Shown: positions 1 through 46,094 of the stretch, piece after piece
Layout of the letters: each line of letters begins with the position of its first letter
How positions within the stretch are numbered: position 1 is the stretch's first letter
Assembly: GCA_025451295.1 (NCBI GenBank)
Contig: JANWKQ010000168.1
Location: 911 to 64,910, forward strand
Source of the DNA: Flavobacteriales bacterium
Lineage (GTDB): Bacteria > Bacteroidota > Bacteroidia > CAIKAF01
Direction: 5' to 3'
DNA: 64,000 bases
Made by a program: the position numbers and the translations under genes
Notes under the pieces: model-generated
The model's database searches: none
What the model was told of the DNA's origin: nothing
The model's input: the letters and a program-made list of their open reading frames with translations, nothing else

Positions 1-36
1 TCTAAAACATTGCCCTTACTACTAAACCGCTCCAGT

Positions 37-255
37 TTAAAAGAGTGATGGGTATATTTTGTCCCTTCCGCATTCAAATTCAGGGGCCGCAAAATCCGAT
101 AAACTCCTGTGCTCGCCAATAATAGGCACAATACTTACGGTGTTTTTGATCTGAACTCTTGGTTCGAGAAATTTTAGGCATTTCTTGCCGATAAAATGAT
201 CCCTTCCTGAGGGGCCTATTTTATCCATCATTCCCTTTACTTCCATCAGTTTCAC
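37..255 (-). CDS. hypothetical small protein (72 aa)
   Basis: Complete ORF from the track. It sits downstream of the OmpA-like gene's terminator. No recognisable motif. Confidence 0.25.
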   Translation of the reverse strand: MKLMEVKGMMDKIGPSGRDHFIGKKCLKFLEPRVQIKNTVSIVPIIGEHRSLSDFAAPEFECGRDKIYPSLF

Positions 256-334
256 AATTTGGGGTTTTGTTAATATAACGATGGATAGGGTCCAATTGTT
301 GTTGACAAAAATTCTGCTTTATCGCAAAAAAAAA

Positions 335-3345: not shown

Positions 3346-4392
3346 CTAGTGCTTATTGGCCAACTGGCCACAAGCGGCATCAATATCTTTCCCTCGGCTT
3401 CGGCGGACGTTTACAATGACATTCCTGCTTTCGAGATAGGCAATAAAAGCCTCCGTTTTTTGCTTGGAAGCCTGTTCAAAATATCCGTTCTCAATCGGAT
3501 TGTATTCGATCACATTTACTTTACATGGAATATGTTTGCAATAATCCGCTAACTCTTTTGCGTCAGAGATATCATCATTAAAATCTTTGAAAATAATGTA
3601 TTCGTATGTGACCCTTGTTCCCGTTTTTTCATAAAAATATTTGAGGGCATCGGCCAGCAACTCTAATGGATTACTGTCGTTAATACTCATGAGCTTTGAA
3701 CGCTTTTCATTATTGGCAACATGTAATGACAGGGCCAGATTAAATTTCACCTGGTCATCAGCCATTTTTACGATCATCTTTGCAATGCCGCTTGTACTTA
3801 AAGTGATCCTTTTGGGTGACATACCTAAGGCATCCGGGGACGAGATAAGAGAGATACTCTCCATTACATTTTTATAGTTGAGCAGTGGTTCACCCATACC
3901 CATATAAACAATGTTGGAAAGTGGCAGCTGATAATTTTGTTTAGCCTGGTTATTAAGATTCACCACCTGATCGAAAATTTCGTCAGGTGTAAGGTTACGG
4001 ATCATTTTAAGTCTCGCGGTGGCGCAAAATTTACAGTCAAGGCTGCAGCCAACCTGCGAAGAAATACATGCTGTCATTCTTTTAGGGGTGGGAATAAGCA
4101 CACCCTCCACCACCTTTCCATCGTGGAGGGAAAAGGCGGATTTAATGGTCTTGTCTTTACTTTTTTGTGAGGTGAGGGTCTCCAGTTGGTGGATGGTAAA
4201 GTTATCTTCCAGAAATTGGCGTAACGGCTTGGATACATTGCTCATGGCCTCAAAACTCACCACATGTTTTTGCCAAAGCCATTGGTAAACCTGGTCGGCT
4301 CTGAAAGATTTTTCGCCCTTTTCAATAAAAAGCGTTTTTAGTTCATCTTTGTCAAAGCTTCGTATATTTGGCTTTATGTCTGCGGATGCCAT
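3346..4392 (-). CDS. rlmN: 23S rRNA/tRNA (adenine-C2)-methyltransferase RlmN (radical SAM)
   Basis: CxxxCxxC radical-SAM motif (GCSLDCKFCAT). RlmN-family N-terminus and length. Confidence 0.9.
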   Translation of the reverse strand: MASADIKPNIRSFDKDELKTLFIEKGEKSFRADQVYQWLWQKHVVSFEAMSNVSKPLRQFLEDNFTIHQLETLTSQKSKDKTIKSAFSLHDGKVVEGVLIPTPKRMTACISSQVGCSLDCKFCATARLKMIRNLTPDEIFDQVVNLNNQAKQNYQLPLSNIVYMGMGEPLLNYKNVMESISLISSPDALGMSPKRITLSTSGIAKMIVKMADDQVKFNLALSLHVANNEKRSKLMSINDSNPLELLADALKYFYEKTGTRVTYEYIIFKDFNDDISDAKELADYCKHIPCKVNVIEYNPIENGYFEQASKQKTEAFIAYLESRNVIVNVRRSRGKDIDAACGQLANKH

Positions 4393-24531: not shown

Positions 24532-24621
24532 GAATTCGATTTGTTTGGGCGGCTTTTCCCGCTATCCGCTATATCTTTTGCTGAGCAAAAGGATGCCGCT
24601 CCTATCGCGGCCGCTGGCGTC
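24523..24621 (+). repeat. copy B (short form) of the dispersed intergenic repeat family
   Basis: Motif 1 (cgctatatcttttgctg) is directly fused to motif 2 (caaaaggatgccgct). Bounded by a perfect 8-bp inverted repeat (gacgccag…ctggcgtc). Lies between convergent genes. Confidence 0.5.
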
Positions 24622-37462: not shown

Positions 37463-38251
37463 TTATTTTAGCATGATACAGGAGGCAAATCTTCCCGTCT
37501 TGTTTTTAAAATAACGGGCTGAATAAAAAGTCTCATGATTTTTAAAAGTGCAAAGGCCTGAGATCTCAATATTATTTTCCGGGACACCGTGGTTGATCAA
37601 CCAGGTTTTGTTGGCCAGCCAAAGATCCACATGTGCTTTATCACCGTGGTAATTGGAAATAAGATCCGAAGAATTCGCAAATGCATTTTTAACTGCTTCG
37701 ATCACTTCCGGACCCACTTCATAGTTTTCAGCACAAATGGAAGGACCGATCCCTGCAAGAATATTTTCCGGTTGTGAATTGAATTCTGTTTTCAACGCAG
37801 ATACTACTTTATCTACAATCCCATTTACAGTTCCTTTCCAGCCTGCATGGATCGAAGCAACCACTTTTTCTTTTTTATCAAACAAGAGAATGGGTACACA
37901 ATCTGCACCCAAAGCGGCAATGGCCATATTTTCTTCAGCAGTGATCAATGCATCGTTGTTCTCACGGGTATCGCGAAAGTTTTTTTCGGTAATAATTTTA
38001 TAATTGGTAGAATGGGTTTGTTTTTGAAAAACCAGTCTTTCAAAAGGTACTCCCATAAATCCGGCTAATCTTCTGCGGTTCTCCTCCACGTAGTTTAAAT
38101 GATCTTCCACCCCATAACCCAGATTCAACGAATCGGCATATCCTTCGGATATTCCACCTTTCCGGGTGGAGATAGCGTGTCGGATGCTGCTTTGATCTAA
38201 TAAGTTCTCAAATTGAAATACTTCCAGATGGGTTTCTTTGTTTAATTTCAT
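37463..38251 (-). CDS. pgeF: peptidoglycan editing factor PgeF (YfiH/DUF152, laccase-domain protein)
   Basis: Conserved His/Cys residues and family length. Confidence 0.8.
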   Translation of the reverse strand: MKLNKETHLEVFQFENLLDQSSIRHAISTRKGGISEGYADSLNLGYGVEDHLNYVEENRRRLAGFMGVPFERLVFQKQTHSTNYKIITEKNFRDTRENNDALITAEENMAIAALGADCVPILLFDKKEKVVASIHAGWKGTVNGIVDKVVSALKTEFNSQPENILAGIGPSICAENYEVGPEVIEAVKNAFANSSDLISNYHGDKAHVDLWLANKTWLINHGVPENNIEISGLCTFKNHETFYSARYFKNKTGRFASCIMLK

Positions 38252-38937
38252 TCTGCTTCTTTCAATAGTTTTTCCACCACCTGTCTTACGCCTTCGCTGG
38301 CTTTCATTTCGTAGGTTTCCATTTTTTGTATTCCACTTACTTCAGGAATTTTTCGGTCAATAATGATCTTTCTTTTTTCCGCTGGAGCATAGGTTAGGAT
38401 CCCGGCAGCCGGATAAACCTGGAGACTGGTTCCTACCACCATAATGATCTCAGCATTCACAACCTCTTTTAGTGCAACGGACATCATCGGCACATCTTCC
38501 CCAAACCAAACGATATGTGGTCTAAGCTGACTTCCTTTACCACACTTGTCACCTAACTTGATGTCCTCTTTCCAATCGTACACCAGAGATTCATCCAACG
38601 TACTTCTCACTTTCAACAGTTCACCATGTAAATGAATAATGTTTTTTGAGCCGGCTCTTTCATGAAGATCATCTACGTTTTGAGTAACGATCACTACCTC
38701 ATATTTCGCTTCGAGATTTACGAGGAGTTTGTGGGCATCATTGGGTTCTACTTCACGTAATTGTTTTCTTCGTAAGTTGTAAAACTCAAGCACCAACTCT
38801 TTGTTCTTATGCCAGCCTTGTGGTGATGCCACTTCCATAATATCATGCCCTTCCCATAAACCACCGGCATCCCGAAATGTTTTAATCCCGCTTTCTTCAC
38901 TAATACCCGCTCCGGTTAATACAACAATTTTTTTCAT
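38248..38937 (-). CDS. cobB: NAD-dependent protein deacylase (Sir2 family)
   Basis: GAGIS…G…FR Sir2 motif. Zn-ribbon cysteines. Confidence 0.85.
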   Translation of the reverse strand: MKKIVVLTGAGISEESGIKTFRDAGGLWEGHDIMEVASPQGWHKNKELVLEFYNLRRKQLREVEPNDAHKLLVNLEAKYEVVIVTQNVDDLHERAGSKNIIHLHGELLKVRSTLDESLVYDWKEDIKLGDKCGKGSQLRPHIVWFGEDVPMMSVALKEVVNAEIIMVVGTSLQVYPAAGILTYAPAEKRKIIIDRKIPEVSGIQKMETYEMKASEGVRQVVEKLLKEAE

Positions 38938-38984
38938 GGATCAACTTTGATGGATAAAGTTACAAATAATCTCCAATGGCATAG

Positions 38985-39128
38985 GGATAGAAGCGGCATC
39001 CTTTTTATTGCTTCCCAAAACCATTTTCGATGCAGCAGTACAGACGTGCCCTGGCACGTCTCCTCAAATTGACGAAACTACGCGAACAGCAATAAAAAGA
39101 TATAGCGAATAGCCCGTTGCGCCATAGC
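38985..39128 (-). repeat. copy D of the dispersed intergenic repeat family (inverted orientation)
   Basis: On the minus strand it contains motif 1 (ttcgctatatctttttattgctg), the palindrome (agacgtgccagggcacgtct) and motif 2 (gcaataaaaaggatgccgcttc), in the same order and spacing as copy A. Confidence 0.5.
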
Positions 39129-39163: not shown

Positions 39164-39187
39164 AAAAAAGCCCCTCCGAAAAGGGGC
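39164..39187 (-). terminator. terminator for the 39213..39917 gene
   Basis: gcccctccgaaaaggggc hairpin with a T-run on the minus strand. Confidence 0.5.
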
Positions 39188-39212
39188 CTGTTACTCTATC
39201 ACAAATCAAACA

Positions 39213-39917
39213 TTATTTTTCCTGGAGGTCATCATCAAATCCTTTATCACCACCCTTTTTCTTCCGTTCACCTTTTTTATTCTTTCTATACTCCTTTATT
39301 AGTTTGATCTGATCTTCCGATAGAATTTTCTTAACACCTTCTTTTTTATCTTCATTAATGACTTTCATCGCATTCTTCATTCCATCAGTACCCAGATCGT
39401 TGGCACAAAAAGCCGCTTTTTTTCTGGTAGCCAGATCTGTCAACAAAACCTTCATGTCATTACGTTGGTTTCCGGTGAATTTTACAATTTCATCTATTTG
39501 ATCGAGGCGATGATCAATCCTCTCATCCAGACTACCTCCTTTTTTATGATCCTGTTTTTTACCTTTATGTTCCGCCTTCTTTTCTTTTAAATGTGTTTTC
39601 AAAAGTTTCACCTGGTCATTCGATAGGATTTTTTTTACACCCGCTTTTTTCTCTTTCTGAATATCCTTCATTGCATTTTTCATTCCTGCCGAACCTATTT
39701 CGTTGGTACAAAAGGCATCTTTCTTCTTTTTGGCAAGATCTGTAAGCAAGATCTTCAGATCGTTTCGCTGTGTGCCGGTAAATTTGACCACTTCATCCAT
39801 TTTATCAAGGCGGCGATCCACCCGGTCTTCTATAGTTCCACCACCGCGGTGATGCTGGCTGAAGCTAAAGGCTACCATACCAAGGAATACTGCTATACTT
39901 AATGTTAACCGTTTCAT
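39213..39917 (-). CDS. secreted Lys-rich protein with two ~100-aa internal repeats, LTXXQ/Spy-CpxP-like
   Basis: Signal peptide. Internal duplication (…RLDKMDEVVKFTGTQRNDLKILLTDLAKKKKDAFC… versus …RLDQIDEIVKFTGNQRNDMKVLLTDLATRKKAAFC…). LS(N/E)DQ motifs resemble LTXXQ. Confidence 0.45.
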   Translation of the reverse strand: MKRLTLSIAVFLGMVAFSFSQHHRGGGTIEDRVDRRLDKMDEVVKFTGTQRNDLKILLTDLAKKKKDAFCTNEIGSAGMKNAMKDIQKEKKAGVKKILSNDQVKLLKTHLKEKKAEHKGKKQDHKKGGSLDERIDHRLDQIDEIVKFTGNQRNDMKVLLTDLATRKKAAFCANDLGTDGMKNAMKVINEDKKEGVKKILSEDQIKLIKEYRKNKKGERKKKGGDKGFDDDLQEK

Positions 39918-40027
39918 CTTTATTCGTTTTAGTTTAGGGATTGGATGGTCGAAAATCCAAAAGGTTTAATGGGTGGCTGTGAAAATAAATTAAAAACTCC
40001 GCCTCGCCAGAGTTTTGGAGTATTTTA

Positions 40028-40363
40028 TTAATTGCCGCGATCCAGGCGTTTGTTTCTTTTTTTACGAAGATTTGTTTTTGGTTTTGCTTTGGCTTGGATC
40101 CGGTTTTTTTTGATCCTGTGAGTTGATGCTTTCTTTTGATTACGCGTTATATAAGCATTGGTATTTCCATTCTGCTTGGTTCTGCCATGCGAATTGAACC
40201 TGTTCTTGGCTGAATGTTTTACATGTTTATTTGTTTTTAAAGTATTTGGACCTTTTCTGGTATTTAAACAAGGGTTTCCAAAATTAGATCCAACCTGCGC
40301 CGTGGCAACAACCATTGTGAATAAGGTAACGAGAAGAATGGCTAAAAGGGATTTAGTTTTCAT
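40028..40363 (-). CDS. small secreted, extremely basic (K/R/N-rich) protein
   Basis: Signal peptide MKTK…TAQ followed by a low-complexity basic region. Confidence 0.4.
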   Translation of the reverse strand: MKTKSLLAILLVTLFTMVVATAQVGSNFGNPCLNTRKGPNTLKTNKHVKHSAKNRFNSHGRTKQNGNTNAYITRNQKKASTHRIKKNRIQAKAKPKTNLRKKRNKRLDRGN

Positions 40364-40399
40364 GACTCAACTTTTCATAGGGAATCCAAATTGCGTGCC

Positions 40400-40435
40400 A
40401 AAAGAAAACGCCGGGTTGTTCCGGCGTTTGTATGA
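40400..40435 (-). terminator. terminator for the His/Cys-rich protein gene
   Basis: aacgccgg…ccggcgtt hairpin followed by a T-rich tract on the minus strand. Confidence 0.5.
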
Positions 40436-40457
40436 TCTGTTTTATGAAGTTCAATGT

Positions 40458-40790
40458 TTAGTCGTCATCGTGTTTGCAGCATTTTCCTTTGTGATTATCA
40501 TGATCGTTTTTACACTTATGCTTGTGTTTATCACAATGTTTATGCTTGTGTTTACAACAACTATCGTGGTTATGACCATGATTGGAGCAGTAATTATTAT
40601 TATTTGAATAGTTATCTGAACAGCATCCTGAATTGTTACTGTAAAAGATTCCTGTATTACTGTTAGGCGTGGTGCCTAAGGAGAGGGTGGAGCTGAAACC
40701 TCCAGCTACTGTAATAGAGATCTGGGCGGTAGAGGTTGTGCTGGTGAGCAACAACATACACATAGCGGCAAAAAGAACTTTGGTTTTCAT
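40458..40790 (-). CDS. small secreted His/Cys/Lys-rich protein (putative metal-binding)
   Basis: Signal peptide MKTK…TAQ. C-terminal CCSDN…CCKHKHKHCDKHKHKCKNDHDNHKGKCCKHDDD. TAnnTTTG-like promoter motif upstream. Confidence 0.5.
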   Translation of the reverse strand: MKTKVLFAAMCMLLLTSTTSTAQISITVAGGFSSTLSLGTTPNSNTGIFYSNNSGCCSDNYSNNNNYCSNHGHNHDSCCKHKHKHCDKHKHKCKNDHDNHKGKCCKHDDD

Positions 40791-40857
40791 AAATGCAAGC
40801 TTTTGAAAACTAAGTCAAATTATATGCCAAAGGAAACCTATTGTTCACAGAACCGAT

Positions 40858-42201
40858 TTAGGAATGGGATAATAGGTGTAGGATCTTTTCTTCCACTTCC
40901 ATGCTATTCCATTTTTCGGCCAGATTGGGCATTTTCATTACCTGGGCCATGATGGCGTTTTGATAATCCCCTTTTTGCAAAGCATACTCATATGAAAAAT
41001 CACTGAAGGTAACCATCGAGTACAGAGGTACCCATTTATCTGGATGCTTTTGATAGAACCAGCCTTCTATTTTTTTCTGAAGTAAAAAATCAGGGTCAGC
41101 AGTCAAATCACGCATTTCAATAAAATTTCGCAAGGCAAGTTCCGCTACCGAATCTGCATTGGGTTTTCTTGATTTTCCAAAGGCTTCGAAAAAATTCTCA
41201 AACTTATTGAGATGTTCATCCAACATCTGATCGAAAACAAAACAATCTTCAAATCCAGCATTCATGCCTTGTCCGTAAAAGGGAACCACGGCATGAGCTG
41301 CATCTCCCATAAGAACTACAGAATCCTTATAATGCCATGGATAGCAGCGAATGGTTTGAAGCGCAGAGGTTGGATGATTTAAAAATTGCTCCATGAAATC
41401 CGGAAGGTGAGGGATCACATCAGGGAAATAATATTGAAAGAACCCTAGAATATCCCGTTCTGTTTTTAAAGACTGAAAAGAAACTTTCCCTTCCCATCCT
41501 AAAAATAATGTACAGGTAAAACTTCCATCAATATTTGGCAGGGCGATCAGCATAAAATCTTCCCTTGGCCATATATGTAAGGTGTTTGGATCCATTTTAT
41601 GGGATCCGTCTTCATTCGCTTCGATATGAAGTTCTTTGTATCCATGATCGATATAGTCCTGCGAATAATCAAAACGTTCGTTGAACATGAGGCGATGTCG
41701 CACAGCGGAAAAAGCCCCATCTGTGCCGATGAGATGTTCGTAAACATGCGACATTTCTTCACCAGTTATATCATTTTTGAAGTACGCAGTTTTGTTTTCC
41801 AGATCGATGTTTGCACAACGGGCATCAAAATGCATGGTCGTCTGTTCGTATTTGTCGGCGATTTGCAATAAGGTTCTGTTGAGTTCTCCCCTCGATACGC
41901 TATAGATCGCTTCACCTTCTTTACCATAAGGTTGAAAGGTTAAATTCCCATGTATATCATGCATGGTCCTTTTATACATCGGGATCGCAATTTCACGGAT
42001 GGTTTCTTCAGCACCAACTTTCCGCAGGGCTTTCCATGCCCGGTTACTCACAGCCAGATTGATGGATCTTCCCTGATAAATATCAGCGTTCCGGATATCC
42101 GGTCTTCTTTCAAACAGATCAACCCTGAATCCGCGTTGTGCTAAAAAAACAGATTGTAAGGCTCCAACCAGTCCCCCGCCAACAATGGTAAAATTTTTCA
42201 T
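40858..42201 (-). CDS. kmo: kynurenine 3-monooxygenase (FAD-dependent)
   Basis: N-terminal FAD-binding GxGxxG (IVGGGLVGAL). KMO-length flavoprotein monooxygenase. The track start at 42276 is probably an over-extension. Confidence 0.8.
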   Translation of the reverse strand: MKNFTIVGGGLVGALQSVFLAQRGFRVDLFERRPDIRNADIYQGRSINLAVSNRAWKALRKVGAEETIREIAIPMYKRTMHDIHGNLTFQPYGKEGEAIYSVSRGELNRTLLQIADKYEQTTMHFDARCANIDLENKTAYFKNDITGEEMSHVYEHLIGTDGAFSAVRHRLMFNERFDYSQDYIDHGYKELHIEANEDGSHKMDPNTLHIWPREDFMLIALPNIDGSFTCTLFLGWEGKVSFQSLKTERDILGFFQYYFPDVIPHLPDFMEQFLNHPTSALQTIRCYPWHYKDSVVLMGDAAHAVVPFYGQGMNAGFEDCFVFDQMLDEHLNKFENFFEAFGKSRKPNADSVAELALRNFIEMRDLTADPDFLLQKKIEGWFYQKHPDKWVPLYSMVTFSDFSYEYALQKGDYQNAIMAQVMKMPNLAEKWNSMEVEEKILHLLSHS

Positions 42202-42297: not shown

Positions 42298-43728
42298 TTA
42301 CTCAGTGATCGCAAAAAACTCTACATCCGCGTAGCCATGGCTTCCGCTTGAAATAGGTTGTAGCGTATAGTTAATGTTTGATACAGAAAAAGTAGTCGAA
42401 GTAACATAACCATCCGCCGTAACCAATGTGGGTGCAACCACAGAAGAAACTGATACCGAAAGATCAGATAGGGTCCCGTTGGCAATATACCATTTTCCGT
42501 CGATCTGAGTATATTCCGACCAGGTTTCTCCCAATAGGATCAGTTGGCCATTGTACGAAAGAATTGCTTCTACTCGTTCTCCACATTTTTCATCCGACAC
42601 TTCACCCGTAAAGAAATTGTATTGGCTGATCAGATTACCATTTAAATCCATCTTAAGAAAACATCCGTCTCCCCATTGGCCGGTATCATATCCATCGAAG
42701 CTTCCTTTCCCACCAACATAGATCGTATTATTAATCACCCGTAAGCAGGAAATATTATTCCGGTCGTTGTTGAGACCCTGGAATTTTTTTGACCAAACCA
42801 GGTTACCACTATTATCTATCTTTAGAATTCCCATATAAGTGGATACACCTCTCAGATCAGCTCCAAGATAAAGATCGCCGGTGGCGTCTACTTCCATATC
42901 CGTTATACGGCCAGCCCATCCTACATCTACCTTTTTACACCAGTCCAGAGTGGCTCCACCAGAAGATAACTTCATCACAAATCCTGAATTATTACTTCCT
43001 GCCCATCCTGCGATATAAATATTATTTCCATCCGGTGAACGAACCACATAACCGCGATCATTATACCCAGGTGAAGGATCAATACCAACCGTTGTATTGG
43101 GATCAACAGTTCCATTGGAAGCATCCATAATAAGTAGAAAGACCATTCCTTCTTCAGAAGTTGTACCTGCACCTGTGCTTCCGGTAACAAAAACTTTTCC
43201 ACCGGCAACATCCAGGGAATAGGCCTTGGCACTGCTACTCGATACCGCCGAGCTGGTTGCCTTCCAGAATTTTTGCCAGATCACGGTTCCAGATCCACTC
43301 ATTTTGGTAATGAATACCTCGTTGTAACCTTGACTGGATGCTCCTGTGATGTATACATCTCCACTGGCATCCACCGCTACACATCTTGATCCACCACCAC
43401 CCTGCGAAATTCCATTTTCTCCCGGTGAAGGCATCCAATCTTGTGCTCCTCCATCAAAGGACTTTGACCACGAAACAGTTTTGGTATTGAAATTAACTTT
43501 AGTGAGAAAGATATTTCCCTGGTAACCATCAGGAAGTGTAGAACCGGTGAAATAAATATTTCCACTGTTGTCAATCACAGCTCCGGAAAAATCATCATCA
43601 TCTGGTGATCCCCAACATCCATTCCAGTCGGTTGTGAAATCTGCTTTGGTATGGTTACCTCCAAAAGGATCGCAGGAGGAAAATAAAATAGGGGCTAGAA
43701 AGCCCAACAAATGAATAATTTTTTTCAT
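42298..43728 (-). CDS. lipoprotein with SBBP-type beta-propeller repeats
   Basis: Lipobox LFSSC. Repeated D(A/N)(S/T)G(N/D)(I/L)Y(I/L)(T/A)G motifs. Confidence 0.55.
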   Translation of the reverse strand: MKKIIHLLGFLAPILFSSCDPFGGNHTKADFTTDWNGCWGSPDDDDFSGAVIDNSGNIYFTGSTLPDGYQGNIFLTKVNFNTKTVSWSKSFDGGAQDWMPSPGENGISQGGGGSRCVAVDASGDVYITGASSQGYNEVFITKMSGSGTVIWQKFWKATSSAVSSSSAKAYSLDVAGGKVFVTGSTGAGTTSEEGMVFLLIMDASNGTVDPNTTVGIDPSPGYNDRGYVVRSPDGNNIYIAGWAGSNNSGFVMKLSSGGATLDWCKKVDVGWAGRITDMEVDATGDLYLGADLRGVSTYMGILKIDNSGNLVWSKKFQGLNNDRNNISCLRVINNTIYVGGKGSFDGYDTGQWGDGCFLKMDLNGNLISQYNFFTGEVSDEKCGERVEAILSYNGQLILLGETWSEYTQIDGKWYIANGTLSDLSVSVSSVVAPTLVTADGYVTSTTFSVSNINYTLQPISSGSHGYADVEFFAITE

Positions 43729-43837
43729 AGTTGATTTTTTATGGAATAAATATACCCCACGAAGCCCTGTTAGGATGGACAATATTGGCACAATGCACAC
43801 AAAAAAGGGTGAATGACAGAAATACGAAGGTGAGATT

Positions 43838-44644
43838 TTAGACGGCTACATTGTATTCTCTCAATGCATCATTCAGGGATGTTTTGGTATCTGTACTTTC
43901 TTTTCTTTTTCCAATGATCAATGCACAGGGAACCTGAAAATCTCCGGCATTGAATTTTTTAGTATAACTTCCTGGGATCACCACGGATCTTTCTGGAACA
44001 TAACCTTTATACTCGATGGGCTCATTGCCACTTACGTCAATAATTTTTGTTGACATCGTGAGTACCACATTAGCGCCAAGTACGGCTTCTTTTCCAACCC
44101 TTACACCTTCAACAACAATACAACGTGAACCAATAAAAGCACTATCCTCGATGATCACAGGTGCAGCCTGAACGGGTTCCAGTACACCACCCAATCCAAC
44201 TCCGCCACTCAGGTGAACATGTTTTCCAACCTGTGCACAACTACCAACGGTGGCCCAGGTATCAACCATGGTGCCGGCATCTACATATGCCCCAATATTT
44301 ACAAATGATGGCATACAAATAACTCCGCTTGAAACGTATGATCCATAACGGATCACAGAACCGGGAACGGTTCGGATGCCAGATTTTTCCATGCCCGTTT
44401 TTAAAGGAATCTTGTCAAAATATTGTTCGGGACCCTCCTGCATGATCTTCATTGGCATAATAGGGAAATAGAGGATCACTGCCTTTTTTATCCATTCATT
44501 TACCTGCCATCCGTTAGCAACAGGTTCGGCCACGCGGATCTCGCCTTTATCCAAAAGTTCAATAACCTCTTTGATGGTTTTTTGTATGGAACTTTCTTTC
44601 AAAAGTTCACGGTTATTCCAGGCTTGTTCGATGATGTCTTTCAT
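43838..44644 (-). CDS. dapD: 2,3,4,5-tetrahydropyridine-2,6-dicarboxylate N-succinyltransferase
   Basis: Hexapeptide-repeat left-handed beta-helix. DapD-type N-terminus. Confidence 0.85.
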   Translation of the reverse strand: MKDIIEQAWNNRELLKESSIQKTIKEVIELLDKGEIRVAEPVANGWQVNEWIKKAVILYFPIMPMKIMQEGPEQYFDKIPLKTGMEKSGIRTVPGSVIRYGSYVSSGVICMPSFVNIGAYVDAGTMVDTWATVGSCAQVGKHVHLSGGVGLGGVLEPVQAAPVIIEDSAFIGSRCIVVEGVRVGKEAVLGANVVLTMSTKIIDVSGNEPIEYKGYVPERSVVIPGSYTKKFNAGDFQVPCALIIGKRKESTDTKTSLNDALREYNVAV

Positions 44645-44684
44645 GAATATATATATTCCTCCGTCGCAGCAGAGTGGCTCAAAG

Positions 44685-46094
44685 TTAATTTTTCAATTCT
44701 AATAAAGCAACATTCTCCACATGATGGGTATGTGGAAACATATCCACGGGTTGAGACCTGATCACATCGTATTTTTCGACTAATATGGCTATATCTCTTG
44801 CCTGTGTTGCAGGATTACAACTTACATAGACGATTCGTTTCGGTGCTATTTCCAGGATTTTTTTTACCACATCTTCATGCATCCCTGCTCTGGGTGGATC
44901 AGTAATGATTACGTCGGGTTTGCCATGTGTCTGTATAAATTCATCATTTAACACATCCTTCATATCACCCGCATAAAAATCGGTATTGGTAATTCCGTTG
45001 AGGTCTGCATTGATCTTTGCATCCTTGATCGCATCTTCTACGTATTCTATACCTACTACCTTTTTTGTCTTATCAGCCAGATAACAGGCAATCGATCCGG
45101 TTCCGGTATAGAGATCGTACACCAATTCGTTACCCGTTAACCGGGCAAAGTCTTTGGTGATTGAATAAAGTTCAATGGCCTGTTTGGTATTTGTTTGAAA
45201 AAATGATTTGGGGCCGATCTTGAATTGTAAATGTCCGAATTCTTCAACAATATGATCCTTTCCCTTAAACACTTCTATTGGGAGATCTCCATAGGTGTCG
45301 TTTTTCTTTTGGTTGATGACATATAAAAGTGAATCGATGAAAGGAGAGGTCGTTGAGATATATTCCATCAGGTTTCTAAGTTGATCATTCAACTGTTCCC
45401 CAAAAATAACCAGGACCATCCATTCACCTTTTTTAGTTACCCGGATCATGATATTTCGCAAAGCTCCGGAAAACTCATGAACATTAAAAAAACTTATGGA
45501 ATTGCTGAGTGCATATTTTTTTACGGCATTCCTGATCTCATTGTGTACATCATTCATGAGATGACAGGTCTGGATGTCCAGAATTTTATCAAACTTTCCC
45601 GGGATATGAAAACCCAATGCCTCCGGATCCTTCATTTCTTCTCCGCTTTGTATTTCTTCTGTAGTAAGCCAGCGTTTGAAGGAAAAAGTATATTCCAGTT
45701 TGTTTCTGTAATGATATTCATTGACAGATCCTTTGATCGGCAAAAATTCCTGGATGTCAAATTTACCGATCCTGCTAAGTTGATCTTTTACCTGTTGTTC
45801 CTTAAATTTCAATTGTTCTGGATAAGGCATGTGTTGCCATTTACATCCTCCGCAAACCCCAAAATGCTGGCAGACAGGTTCCGATCTGAGCACCGATTTT
45901 TTTAAAAATTGCACCACCGTTCCTTCGGCATGATTCCGACGGTCTTTACCGAGTCTCACGTTTACAACATCGCCCGGGGCTGTGTATGGCACAAAGATCA
46001 CCTTGCCTTCATGTTTGCCAATCGATTTTCCTTCAGCCGCTACTTCGATGATCTCCAGATCTTCGATTATTTTTTCTTTCTTTTTCTTAGCCAC
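44685..46094 (-). CDS. rlmD: 23S rRNA (uracil-C5)-methyltransferase RlmD
   Basis: TRAM domain. 4Fe-4S Cys cluster (CQHFGVCGGCKWQH). SAM-MTase motifs. Confidence 0.85.
   Translation of the reverse strand: MAKKKKEKIIEDLEIIEVAAEGKSIGKHEGKVIFVPYTAPGDVVNVRLGKDRRNHAEGTVVQFLKKSVLRSEPVCQHFGVCGGCKWQHMPYPEQLKFKEQQVKDQLSRIGKFDIQEFLPIKGSVNEYHYRNKLEYTFSFKRWLTTEEIQSGEEMKDPEALGFHIPGKFDKILDIQTCHLMNDVHNEIRNAVKKYALSNSISFFNVHEFSGALRNIMIRVTKKGEWMVLVIFGEQLNDQLRNLMEYISTTSPFIDSLLYVINQKKNDTYGDLPIEVFKGKDHIVEEFGHLQFKIGPKSFFQTNTKQAIELYSITKDFARLTGNELVYDLYTGTGSIACYLADKTKKVVGIEYVEDAIKDAKINADLNGITNTDFYAGDMKDVLNDEFIQTHGKPDVIITDPPRAGMHEDVVKKILEIAPKRIVYVSCNPATQARDIAILVEKYDVIRSQPVDMFPHTHHVENVALLELKN

Follow-up and report, generated by a model that had tools for sequence, protein, structure and literature searches.

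The window analysed here is a 64,000-nucleotide stretch of a contig from an uncultured Flavobacteriales bacterium, and it carries three consecutive minus-strand genes, termed g1, g2 and g3, for exported proteins of unusual composition. The g1 gene (39213–39917) encodes a 234-aa protein with a tandem duplication of a four-helix domain of the Spy/CpxP (LTXXQ) superfamily, g2 (40028–40363) a 111-aa polycationic protein of low complexity, and g3 (40458–40790) a 110-aa protein in which an Asn/Ser-rich middle is followed by a Cys/His/Lys/Asp-rich tail of 57 residues. These calls draw on the open reading frames together with homologues and AF2 models for g1, homologues and purifying selection for g2, and the homologue at locus L006 for g3. 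An earlier sequence-only reading had placed three frames with signal peptides at these coordinates, and both the frames and the compositions it described (a Lys-rich g1, a K/R/N-rich g2 and a His/Cys/Lys-rich tail for g3) are borne out. Each N-terminus comprises a basic n-region, then a hydrophobic core and, after it, SFS↓Q, ATA↓Q or STA↓Q; Gln at the +1 position after the signal peptide is the Bacteroidetes Q-rule (PMC5837995).

A conserved gene beside a variable slot

The three genes lie between genes for a Sir2/CobB deacylase and an FAD monooxygenase of the KMO/VioC type, in agreement with the flanking cobB and kmo genes recognised earlier. A comparison of loci covered 11 distinct lineages and placed g1 immediately behind the KMO-like gene in every one, the order KMO-like gene, slot, g1 being kept throughout (11/11). 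Downstream of g1, cobB and a Cu-oxidase_4 gene follow wherever the sequence reaches, the exception being the L007/L014 lineage; the window and six related lineages then have PpiD next after the Cu-oxidase_4 gene. The slot between the KMO-like gene and g1 is variable: it holds neither g2 nor g3, g2, g3, or both, and both occur together only in the window. The two genes are missing in four to five g1-bearing lineages, which indicates that g1 does not need them; g3 accompanies g1 in two of the 11 lineages, and g1 conservation is kept without it. The view of the three genes as an accessory islet, for which synteny had been proposed as the check, thus holds for the variable g2 and g3 and fails for the conserved g1.

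The G+C content of the three genes (0.37–0.39) is that of the window background (0.396), and composition thus gives no hint that the genes are foreign. Background G+C, conserved synteny and the absence of mobility genes together rule out a foreign or mobile islet. The g1 family is rare; searches with g1 of collections of genome contigs and metagenome contigs returned only two and three loci, respectively, the window's own genome lying outside both collections.

The intergenic repeat noted beside the islet is present and corresponds to the Flavo-1 RNA motif (RF01705), located on the plus strand between g1 and cobB (38974–39123) and possessing a 75-nt insertion in its terminal loop. The motif is missing at all 11 related loci searched, which rules it out as part of a three-gene unit; it is a neighbour of the three genes, with no functional link shown.

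The duplicated domain of g1

The internal duplication reported for g1 is readily apparent, with a domain of ~89 aa repeated in tandem and halves that are 63% identical. The signal peptide spans residues 1–20, and the mature protein, which starts with the Gln of the sequence QHHRGG, contains 21% Lys and has a pI of 9.7. The N-terminal domain (39573–39839, minus strand; residues ~27–115), delineated by alignments and AF2, bears the motifs VKFTGTQ and ILSNDQ and the conserved Cys70; the C-terminal domain (39270–39536, minus strand; residues ~128–216), delineated by alignments, bears VKFTGNQ, ILSEDQ and the conserved Cys171. The AF2 model of the whole protein (pLDDT 78) comprises 2 × 4 helices, and that of the N-terminal domain (pLDDT 92) four helices with both motifs located at helix-helix turns. 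Besides g1 itself, 26 homologues were collected.

Had the LTXXQ-like character attributed to g1 depended on a direct family match, it would not stand: g1 stays below the gathering cut-off of Pfam LTXXQ (PF07813, 24.3 bits) and gives no match to it even at E ≤ 1. The attribution does stand at the superfamily level, through profile methods only. Among close g1 homologues, 17 of 25 match PF07813 below threshold (best E 4e-4). A profile of the g1 domain (A3) retrieved 444 matches at E ≤ 1e-3 from among 1.84 G proteins, many with two to four tandem copies; in a sample of 61 of these, 33 match PF07813 (best 7e-15), 17 match DUF4890 (best 2e-23) and five match Metal_resist. Four proteins that score above the PF07813 gathering cut-off (P0034, P0145, P0160 and P0179) are all found by the A3 profile, with library-wide E values from 4e-16 to 1e-5. 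Alignment of A3 to an alignment of the relatives (A6) by hhalign gave a probability of 99% and an E value of 7e-18 over 80 columns, a comparison that is not independent of the preceding search, as the A6 members were taken from the A3 matches. The narrow g1 profile found no match in the PDB; a widened profile (A5) matched Spy (3OEO, 3O39 and 5WO1; E 1.6e-5 to 3e-4) with both LTXXQ motifs aligned, and E. coli Spy was its only significant PDB match. The two motifs of each g1 domain, FTG(T/N)Q and LS(N/E)DQ, share alignment columns with LTxxQ of the relatives, and both Gln residues are invariant; the first motif reads FTGxQ, not LTxxQ, Phe replacing Leu. At the level of these profile comparisons, homology of g1 to the LTXXQ/Spy superfamily is established.

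Structure comparison did not retrieve this kinship. Foldseek searches of the PDB with the whole-protein and single-domain AF2 models of g1 returned nothing significant, with Spy, CpxP and ZraP not among the matches and unrelated Bacteroides helical proteins scoring best (E 0.06–0.36); the models are of a monomer and might miss a dimer-dependent shape in such a comparison. DUF4890 (PF16231, gathering cut-off 29.7 bits) comprises uncharacterised exported Bacteroidota proteins, and thus resembles g1 in phylum, with similar size and architecture, yet g1 itself has no match to it at E ≤ 1. Two of 25 close homologues do match at that level, and several carry faint precomputed matches. We found no mention of DUF4890 in the literature, so that membership would bring no functional information, and a literature search on LTXXQ proteins in Bacteroidota likewise found nothing relevant.

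Stress induces the periplasmic chaperones Spy and CpxP (PMC6737893). Like Spy, g1 is a small exported protein built entirely of helices, in which each domain bears two (L/F)-(T/S)-x-x-Q motifs at helix-helix turns, and both proteins are apparently stress-regulated. Unlike Spy, g1 fuses two domains in one chain, has FTGxQ as its first motif and is very Lys-rich; it also possesses an invariant Cys in each domain and a 'GMKNAMK' block that is missing in the wider family. CpxP and ZraP are periplasmic stress proteins of the same superfamily. ZraP ties the LTXXQ family to zinc and to sigma-54 control; g1, in contrast, lacks a comparable His-rich metal site, and the sigma-54-like motif at this locus (see below) is found on g2 and g3, not on the LTXXQ protein.

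Two orphan proteins of the variable slot

The mature g2 protein is K/N/R-rich, with a pI of 12.0 and a net charge of about +25; such a polycation would bind polyanionic components of the envelope. Homologues occupy the same position in five other distinct lineages (L003, L005, L008, L011 and L017) and preserve the core GNPCL..KGPNTLKT.KH..RFN.H..NGN...Y and a C-terminal DRGN. The g3 tail contains 11 His, 10 Lys, 9 Cys, 9 Asn and 8 Asp among its 57 residues, and is thus 19% His and 16% Cys. The one g3 homologue, in a Flavobacteriales MAG (L006, 3529–3858), conserves seven of the tail Cys residues. No kinship links the mature part of g2 to that of g3, and both fall on the disordered side of the charge-hydropathy plot.

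Neither protein could be placed in a described family. Together with g1, both lack a significant direct match in Pfam, NCBIfam, PHROGs and PADLOC; g2 has no match in the PDB, and g3 and its L006 homologue have none in Pfam, NCBIfam or the PDB, metallothionein-type families included. Weak matches to GalP_UDP_tr_C, ORF80, Zip, lactococcin 972 and integrase were rejected as composition or coiled-coil noise. Word-indexed homologue searches with g2 and g3 found nothing, the query proteins themselves included, and the homologues described above came to light only when spacers were read at loci that had been fetched via g1.

The status of g2 and g3 as genes is accordingly a question in its own right. 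Public annotation omits both and calls instead an antisense 81-aa ORF on the plus strand (40362–40607); an exact look-up in a collection of 15 billion proteins found that ORF, listed for the same 66,016-bp NCBI contig, and neither g2 nor g3, and both proteins are of low complexity. That g2, g3 or both are chance ORFs opposite a real 81-aa gene is nevertheless hardly credible. The minus-strand frames are conserved as protein: non-synonymous divergence is low and synonymous divergence saturated for both, with pN 0.11–0.35 against pS 0.53–0.87 for g2 and pN 0.17 against pS 0.77 for g3 and its L006 homologue. Signal peptides, terminators and promoter motifs at fixed distance accompany the frames, and g2 homologues are called as genes in four metagenomic assemblies. 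The antisense ORF, for its part, has no cluster relatives, and no overlapping antisense ORF of at least 50 aa accompanies the g3 homologue in L006. Judged by how their sequences have diverged, g2 and g3 are real genes.

A near-identical MKTK…TAQ framing of the g2 and g3 signal peptides had been taken as a hint of common ancestry of their 5′ ends. The 5′ regions are indeed significantly alike (z 6.9), mainly through the shared promoter motif described below. The framing itself is largely generic, because MKTK also starts most g1 homologues and Gln at +1 follows the Q-rule. By our reading of these 5′ regions, the shared promoter motif shows common regulation of g2 and g3, whose 5′ ends may or may not be of common origin.

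Small size, a signal peptide and a patchy distribution, together with the strongly cationic character of g2 and the Cys-rich character of g3, are also what would be expected of secreted antimicrobial or competition peptides, cationic in the one case and bacteriocin-like in the other, encoded beside an unrelated chaperone gene. The only faint family matches, to lactococcin 972 (E 0.16 and 0.69), point the same way and are far below significance. We regard this explanation as quite improbable: nothing for immunity, ABC export or modification is encoded close to the genes at any locus, PADLOC and PHROGs have no matches, and the genes keep a fixed chromosomal position under purifying selection across genomes with saturated synonymous sites. 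Moreover, g2 and g3 possess a Sec signal and no T9SS C-terminal domain, and would hence stay in the periplasm. A RiPP precursor was ruled out for g3 by the Sec signal peptide and the lack of modification enzymes nearby, and a lipoprotein by the absence of a lipobox Cys.

On the basis of its composition, g3 is the best candidate at the locus for a periplasmic metal-binding or redox-buffering protein; its Cys residues could also simply form disulfides in the oxidising periplasm. H. pylori Hpn and the bacterial metallothioneins are His/Cys-rich metal-storage proteins of the cytoplasm. The short, His-dense g3 tail with paired Cys residues (CC...CC) recalls the Hpn type, a likeness that is compositional only; g3 differs in carrying a signal peptide and in lacking homology to any described family.

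Transcription signals and a reading of the three genes

A hairpin followed by a T-run lies behind each stop codon on the minus strand, as had been claimed: at 39168–39189 for g1 (−15 kcal/mol, z −3.0), 39993–40016 for g2 (−9.8 kcal/mol, z −2.5) and 40406–40429 for g3 (−15 kcal/mol, z −3.9), the z-scores relating folding energies to those of shuffles. Hairpins with T-runs, of unrelated sequence, occur behind g1 at every related locus with downstream sequence, and the g3 homologue in L006 is also followed by one. The independent transcription deduced earlier from the terminators gains further support from a conserved promoter-like motif belonging to each gene.

The g1 motif, TTAAACC-N16-ATCCAA (39941–39969, minus strand), ends 23 nt before the ATG. 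In the form TTAAACC-N16-[AGT]TC[ACT][AT]A it recurs at 11 of 11 distinct loci with an invariant 16-nt spacer and a fixed distance to the ATG, within flanks that cannot be aligned. The E. coli sigma-E consensus is GGAACTT-N16-TCAAA (PMC1312014); the g1 motif shares with this ECF-type consensus an AAC-containing −35 box, the 16-nt spacer and a TCAAA-like −10 box. In Flavobacterium psychrophilum the reported ECF motif is of the CGT type, unlike the −10-like box of g1 (ATCMAA). The g1 promoter is thus sigma-E/ECF-like in geometry, which suggests a putative ECF-type factor as the acting sigma factor. This apparent promoter type sets g1 apart from Spy. Spy is under Cpx/Bae control.

Upstream of g2 and g3, the motifs are of the sigma-54-like −24/−12 kind. 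TGGCAC-gcaat-TTGG (40386–40400, minus strand) ends 22 nt before the g2 ATG, and TGGCAT-ataat-TTGA (40815–40829, minus strand) ends 24 nt before that of g3, where it is nearly identical in L006. The pattern TGGCA[CT]-N5-TTG[GA] is positioned 22–24 nt before all seven g2 and g3 genes with upstream sequence, and has no further occurrence at those loci or within the window. A count of TGGCAY-N5-TTG in the window is at chance level (two matches, 1.6 expected); the argument for a sigma-54-like signal is carried by position and by conservation across genomes. Set against TGGCACG-N4-TTGC, the seven motifs have TGGCAC or TGGCAT at −24 and TTG at canonical spacing (7/7), with G or A, not C, as the fourth base. 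No conserved upstream activator-binding site was recognised in the aligned g2 and g3 promoters. The conserved blocks of all three promoters do not fit the Bacteroidetes sigma-A boxes (TTG at −33, TAnnTTTG at −7), which were rejected, and a generic sigma-70 scan was not above chance (seven found, 5.5 expected).

A close parallel is the sigma-54 (SM4) regulon of F. psychrophilum, which shares TGGCAC at −24, TTG at −12, the canonical spacing and, in several sites, a non-C fourth base (PMC9723704). The promoters of that regulon often have TTGT at −12 and lie before genes for chaperones, Skp and exported proteins whose function is unknown; the regulon as a whole spans protein quality control, envelope stress and such exported unknowns (PMC9723704). 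The g2 and g3 motifs differ in the G or A at this fourth position, and were read from sequence alone; they suggest sigma-54 control of both genes.

High osmotic pressure and fresh water both induce sigma-54 promoters of F. psychrophilum, some of which have exported proteins of unknown function downstream (PMC9723704). Such induction would suit g2 and g3 as disordered protectants of the hydrophilin/LEA type, or as polyanion binders, that act against osmotic, cold or desiccation stress, with the Cys and His residues of g3 serving in redox or structure and not in metal binding. The disorder predicted for both mature proteins and their extreme compositions, K/N/R in one and N/S/H/K/D in the other, agree with this possibility. 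Specific binding partners, not bulk action, are instead suggested by the strict conservation of the N-terminal motif in g2 and by the Cys pattern in g3, and we consider the protectant role rather improbable.

The sequence-only reading had proposed a periplasmic metal-buffering or stress module. The stress part is plausible from the promoter types; the metal part has as its basis the composition of g3. In its fullest form, the metal proposal is of one dedicated module, in which g1 would be a ZraP-like zinc-dependent chaperone and g3 a His/Cys sink, co-induced by Zn, Ni or Cu. The superfamily of g1 includes Spy and proteins of the Pfam Metal_resist type, the g3 tail is rich in His and in conserved Cys, and the QHHRGG start of mature g1 is echoed by a few His residues at the N-terminus and in the linker of its homologues. 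E. coli zraP is sigma-54-dependent and zinc-induced, and the sigma-54-like motifs of g2 and g3 would accord with such control. We nevertheless deem a single metal module unlikely. The different promoter motifs on g1 and on g2 and g3 do not make one regulon by sequence; g1 is conserved also in lineages that lack g3; g1 is Lys-rich, not His-rich; and no metal-related family matches g2 or g3. The conserved neighbourhood of the related loci contains no metal transporter, sensor or efflux gene, and at none of these loci is a two-component sensor or a ZraR-like activator a direct neighbour.

Taken together, an envelope-stress set emerges as the most likely reading of the three genes. As a whole, we hold this reading somewhat more probable than otherwise. 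It comprises three monocistronic genes for exported proteins, in which a conserved, duplicated Spy-like g1 is accompanied by the sigma-54-like orphans g2 and g3 in a variable slot. In the corresponding model, Sec and signal peptidase I would export all three proteins to the periplasm. Expressed from a promoter of ECF (sigma-E-like) geometry, g1 would most likely be an ATP-independent periplasmic holdase chaperone, or else a CpxP-like stress adaptor, its two fused domains replacing the two subunits of the Spy dimer. As g2 and g3 share the sigma-54-like −24/−12 promoter, an enhancer-binding activator would probably turn on both at once. The acting sigma factors, the location in the periplasm, a chaperone activity, the binding of metal and a functional link among the three are what we infer from these features.

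A bolder extension, which we judge unlikely and offer as speculation, concerns the slot itself. There, g2, g3 and a third type of gene (L017, 4022–4387) would be the founders of unannotated families of sigma-54-controlled, Sec-exported, disordered micro-proteins. A portable cassette of promoter, leader and signal peptide would be used again each time such a gene emerges or is exchanged at this hot-spot, next to the gene for a Spy-like chaperone; g3 would be a new periplasmic Cys/His metal buffer in Bacteroidota, and g2 a polycation of the envelope that might be a client of the chaperone or its partner.

The conserved promoter motifs of g1 and of g2 and g3 are new here. Current ideas are not overturned by an envelope-stress set whose protein functions are putative; if the reading is true, the Spy/CpxP superfamily reaches the Flavobacteriales as a fusion of two domains that escapes recognition by Pfam, and the ECF-like and sigma-54-like signatures could define envelope-stress regulons in a phylum with poorly known transcription signals. 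The orphan g3 would be a candidate periplasmic metal or redox buffer without described relatives. Standard gene callers would have overlooked two small exported proteins that are conserved and would have called a spurious antisense ORF instead, a concrete instance of the small-protein blind spot.

Gene layout, export signals and neighbourhood

Three minus-strand open reading frames, g1 (39213–39917, 234 aa), g2 (40028–40363, 111 aa) and g3 (40458–40790, 110 aa), lie exactly where the sequence-only reading placed them, flanked by the genes for a Sir2/CobB deacylase (38248–38937) and an FAD monooxygenase of the KMO/VioC type (40858–42201); their G+C content equals that of the window. Each N-terminus combines a basic n-region with a hydrophobic core, with predicted cleavage at SFS/Q (g1), ATA/Q (g2) and STA/Q (g3). 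The MKTK…TAQ framing shared by g2 and g3 is present but generic, because, in Bacteroidetes, signal peptidase I substrates follow a ‘Q-rule’ with Gln at +1 (PMC5837995); most g1 homologues also start with MKTK. The compositions are as unusual as described earlier: mature g1 contains 21% Lys (pI 9.7), mature g2 has a net charge of about +25 (pI 12.0), and the C-terminal 57 residues of g3 hold 11 His, 10 Lys, 9 Cys, 9 Asn and 8 Asp. A hairpin with a T-run lies 3′ of g1, g2 and g3 (−15, −9.8 and −15 kcal/mol; z-scores −3.0, −2.5 and −3.9, respectively), which bears out the claim that each gene possesses its own terminator.

The adjoining intergenic repeat could be identified as a Flavo-1 RNA motif (RF01705; 38974–39123, plus strand) situated between g1 and cobB on the strand opposite to the neighbouring genes, with a 75-nt insertion in the terminal loop. 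A second copy is present in the window (24551–24616, minus strand), and none was found among 11 related loci. Between the KMO-like gene and dapD lies a 500-aa open reading frame with an N-terminal hydrophobic stretch (42298–43800, minus strand). At E ≤ 0.01 Pfam offers nothing for this frame, and the beta-propeller family SBBP alone shows a faint resemblance, at E 0.33. The dapD–TRAM methyltransferase pair (43838–46094, minus strand) is inverted and reordered relative to related loci such as L001, which points to a local rearrangement beside the g1–g3 locus.

A divergent, fused member of the Spy/CpxP superfamily

Direct scans of Pfam and NCBIfam with g1 found nothing, and PF07813, the LTXXQ family to which g1 had been likened, gave no match even at E ≤ 1. 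A homologue search returned 26 relatives in addition to g1 itself; some have two domains and measure ~235 aa, the others have a single domain and measure ~135 aa. The repeat unit of g1 is 89 aa, its two halves are 63% identical, and AlphaFold2 models two four-helix domains (pLDDT 78 for the whole protein, 92 for a single domain). A profile of this domain, run against 1.84 billion representative proteins, retrieved 444 at E ≤ 1e-3, many of them with 2–4 tandem copies. Among 61 of these that were scanned, 33 matched PF07813 (best 7e-15), 17 matched DUF4890, a Bacteroidota exported-protein family (best 2e-23), and 5 matched Metal_resist; four passed the PF07813 gathering cut-off. When the g1 domain family was compared, profile to profile, with PF07813-type relatives drawn from the profile’s own matches, the probability was 99% over 80 columns. 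With a widened profile, E. coli Spy (3OEO, 3O39, 5WO1) was the only significant solved structure, with both LTXXQ motifs aligned; these columns are filled in g1 by VKFTGxQ and ILSxDQ, both located at helix–helix turns in the AlphaFold2 model. Foldseek with either model, whole protein or one domain, retrieved neither Spy nor CpxP, leaving fold identity with them unconfirmed.

Taken together, the profile-based homology and the missing PF07813 match lead us to file g1 as a divergent superfamily member that, by Pfam’s own criterion, is not PF07813; the earlier ‘LTXXQ-like’ label thus holds at the superfamily level only. Three traits set the g1 subfamily apart from the wider LTXXQ family: the first motif carries Phe, each domain has a single invariant Cys, and a GMKNAMK block is present. 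g1 is thus a new, fused variant within a known superfamily. The invariant Cys, in the motif DAFCxNE, are residues 70 (about 39708–39710) and 171 (about 39405–39407); they could be joined in a disulfide, either between domains or between subunits, or serve as metal ligands.

Conserved synteny and a variable slot

We fetched 20 related loci which, with the window, represent 11 distinct lineages. In its complete form, the conserved order runs from a KMO-like monooxygenase through a variable slot to g1, and on to Sir2/CobB, a Cu-oxidase_4 protein and PpiD. The gene directly downstream of the KMO-like gene, slot contents aside, is g1 in 11/11 lineages; the Sir2/CobB and Cu-oxidase_4 genes follow in eight of the nine whose sequence extends far enough, and PpiD is the gene after these in six related lineages as well as in the window. 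The sole break was seen in the L007/L014 lineage, where sulfotransferases, APS kinase, PAPS reductase and a CysN-like GTPase, encoded on metagenomic contigs L014–L016, take the place of cobB. This kept synteny argues that g1 is a conserved chromosomal gene of a narrow group, two ‘Flavobacteriales bacterium’ MAGs among them, rather than part of an accessory islet; the slot contents alone vary. The slot is empty in four lineages (85–114 bp), holds g2 in four (about 450–530 bp) and g3 in one (533 bp), and carries both in the window only (940 bp); in a fifth g2 lineage, L008, the contig begins inside the spacer.

A word-indexed search with g2 and g3 returned nothing, the query itself included, and exact look-ups in a 15-billion-protein collection found neither protein, nor shorter-start versions. 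From the same 66,016-bp NCBI contig, the collection does contain g1, cobB and the KMO-like gene, as well as an 81-aa plus-strand open reading frame (40362–40607) that overlaps the 3′ half of g3 and the g2–g3 spacer in antisense orientation. This frame is the sole member of its cluster, no antisense frame of at least 50 aa overlies the g3 homologue in L006, and it is probably a mis-call. The depositor’s annotation therefore includes a probably spurious antisense frame and misses g2 and g3.

Homologues were obtained by reading the slots of related loci. The g2 relatives (L003, L005, L008, L011 and L017) share a signal peptide, a strongly conserved GNPCL..KGPNTLKTKKH..RFNxH..GNGNxxxY core and a basic tail, with a C-terminal DRG(N/D) in full-length members; the g3 relative, in L006 (MAG CRAIB_MAG100), conserves 7 tail Cys. 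In the claimed frames, synonymous sites are near saturation and non-synonymous divergence is low (pN 0.17 versus pS 0.77 for g3; 0.11–0.35 versus 0.53–0.87 for g2). Judged by this divergence pattern, g2 and g3 are real, unannotated genes. Pfam and the PDB gave no match for either family, and a charge–hydropathy plot places both mature proteins on its disordered side; g2 and g3 represent two uncharacterised, previously undescribed families of small proteins, confined to a narrow lineage.

The L008 g2 homologue (9–275, plus strand) reads NPGIEY instead of NPCLNV and lacks the otherwise conserved Cys; the conserved C-terminal DRGDK lies in another frame (184–324, plus strand), suggesting a frameshift from sequencing error or incipient decay. 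In L017, a 121-aa frame downstream of g1 (4022–4387, plus strand) encodes a small, exported protein of low complexity that represents a third kind, with an MKTKS... signal peptide, its own terminator and an upstream TGGCATAATTATTTC element, whose TGGCAT resembles the motif ahead of g2 and g3. The g1 locus thus collects further genes of this style.

Promoter-like motifs and candidate function

Upstream regions, aligned across all loci, are unalignable outside two motifs. Ahead of g1, TTAAACC-N16-(A/G/T)TC(A/C/T)(A/T)A occurs with an invariant spacer in 11/11 lineages, ending 23–27 nt before the start codon; in geometry it agrees with GGAACTT-N16-TCAAA, the sigma-E consensus of E. coli (PMC1312014). 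Ahead of g2 and g3, TGGCA(C/T)-N5-TTG(G/A) is found in 7/7 genes with upstream sequence, ending 22–24 nt before the ATG. This 14-mer pattern occurs exactly once per locus bearing g2 or g3, in no other locus and nowhere else in the window. It matches the sigma-54 −24/−12 consensus TGGCACG-N4-TTGC save for the last base, at which mapped F. psychrophilum sigma-54 promoters, responsive to blood agar, osmotic pressure and fresh water, likewise vary (TTGT, GTGC) (PMC9723704). The 5′ regions (−60 to +69) of g2 and g3 are significantly similar (z 6.9); that of g1 resembles neither. With the terminators, these motifs suggest a separate promoter and terminator for each gene, in line with the independent transcription proposed earlier. 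We infer sigma-54 for g2 and g3, which look co-regulated, and an ECF factor for g1, which looks separately regulated. Useful as they are, neither the promoter signatures nor the annotation gap is surprising in kind.

The sequence-only reading united the three genes in a single periplasmic metal-buffering or stress module. As a metal module this is the weaker reading: the promoters are of two different types, just 2/11 lineages have g3 alongside g1, and no locus has a linked metal gene. The best reading is an envelope-stress set, because g1 is homologous to Spy and CpxP, which are stress-induced periplasmic chaperones (PMC6737893), all three proteins bear export signals, the promoter signatures are ECF-like (g1) and sigma-54-like (g2, g3), and synteny is conserved beside ppiD, a periplasmic foldase gene. 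Within such an envelope-stress set, g1 would act as an ATP-independent holdase, its two fused domains mimicking the Spy dimer, and g2 and g3 would be disordered proteins of the periplasm that are induced by stress. Metal or redox buffering is the leading guess for g3 alone, owing to its conserved Cys/His tail, and the charge of g2 suggests that it may bind polyanions.
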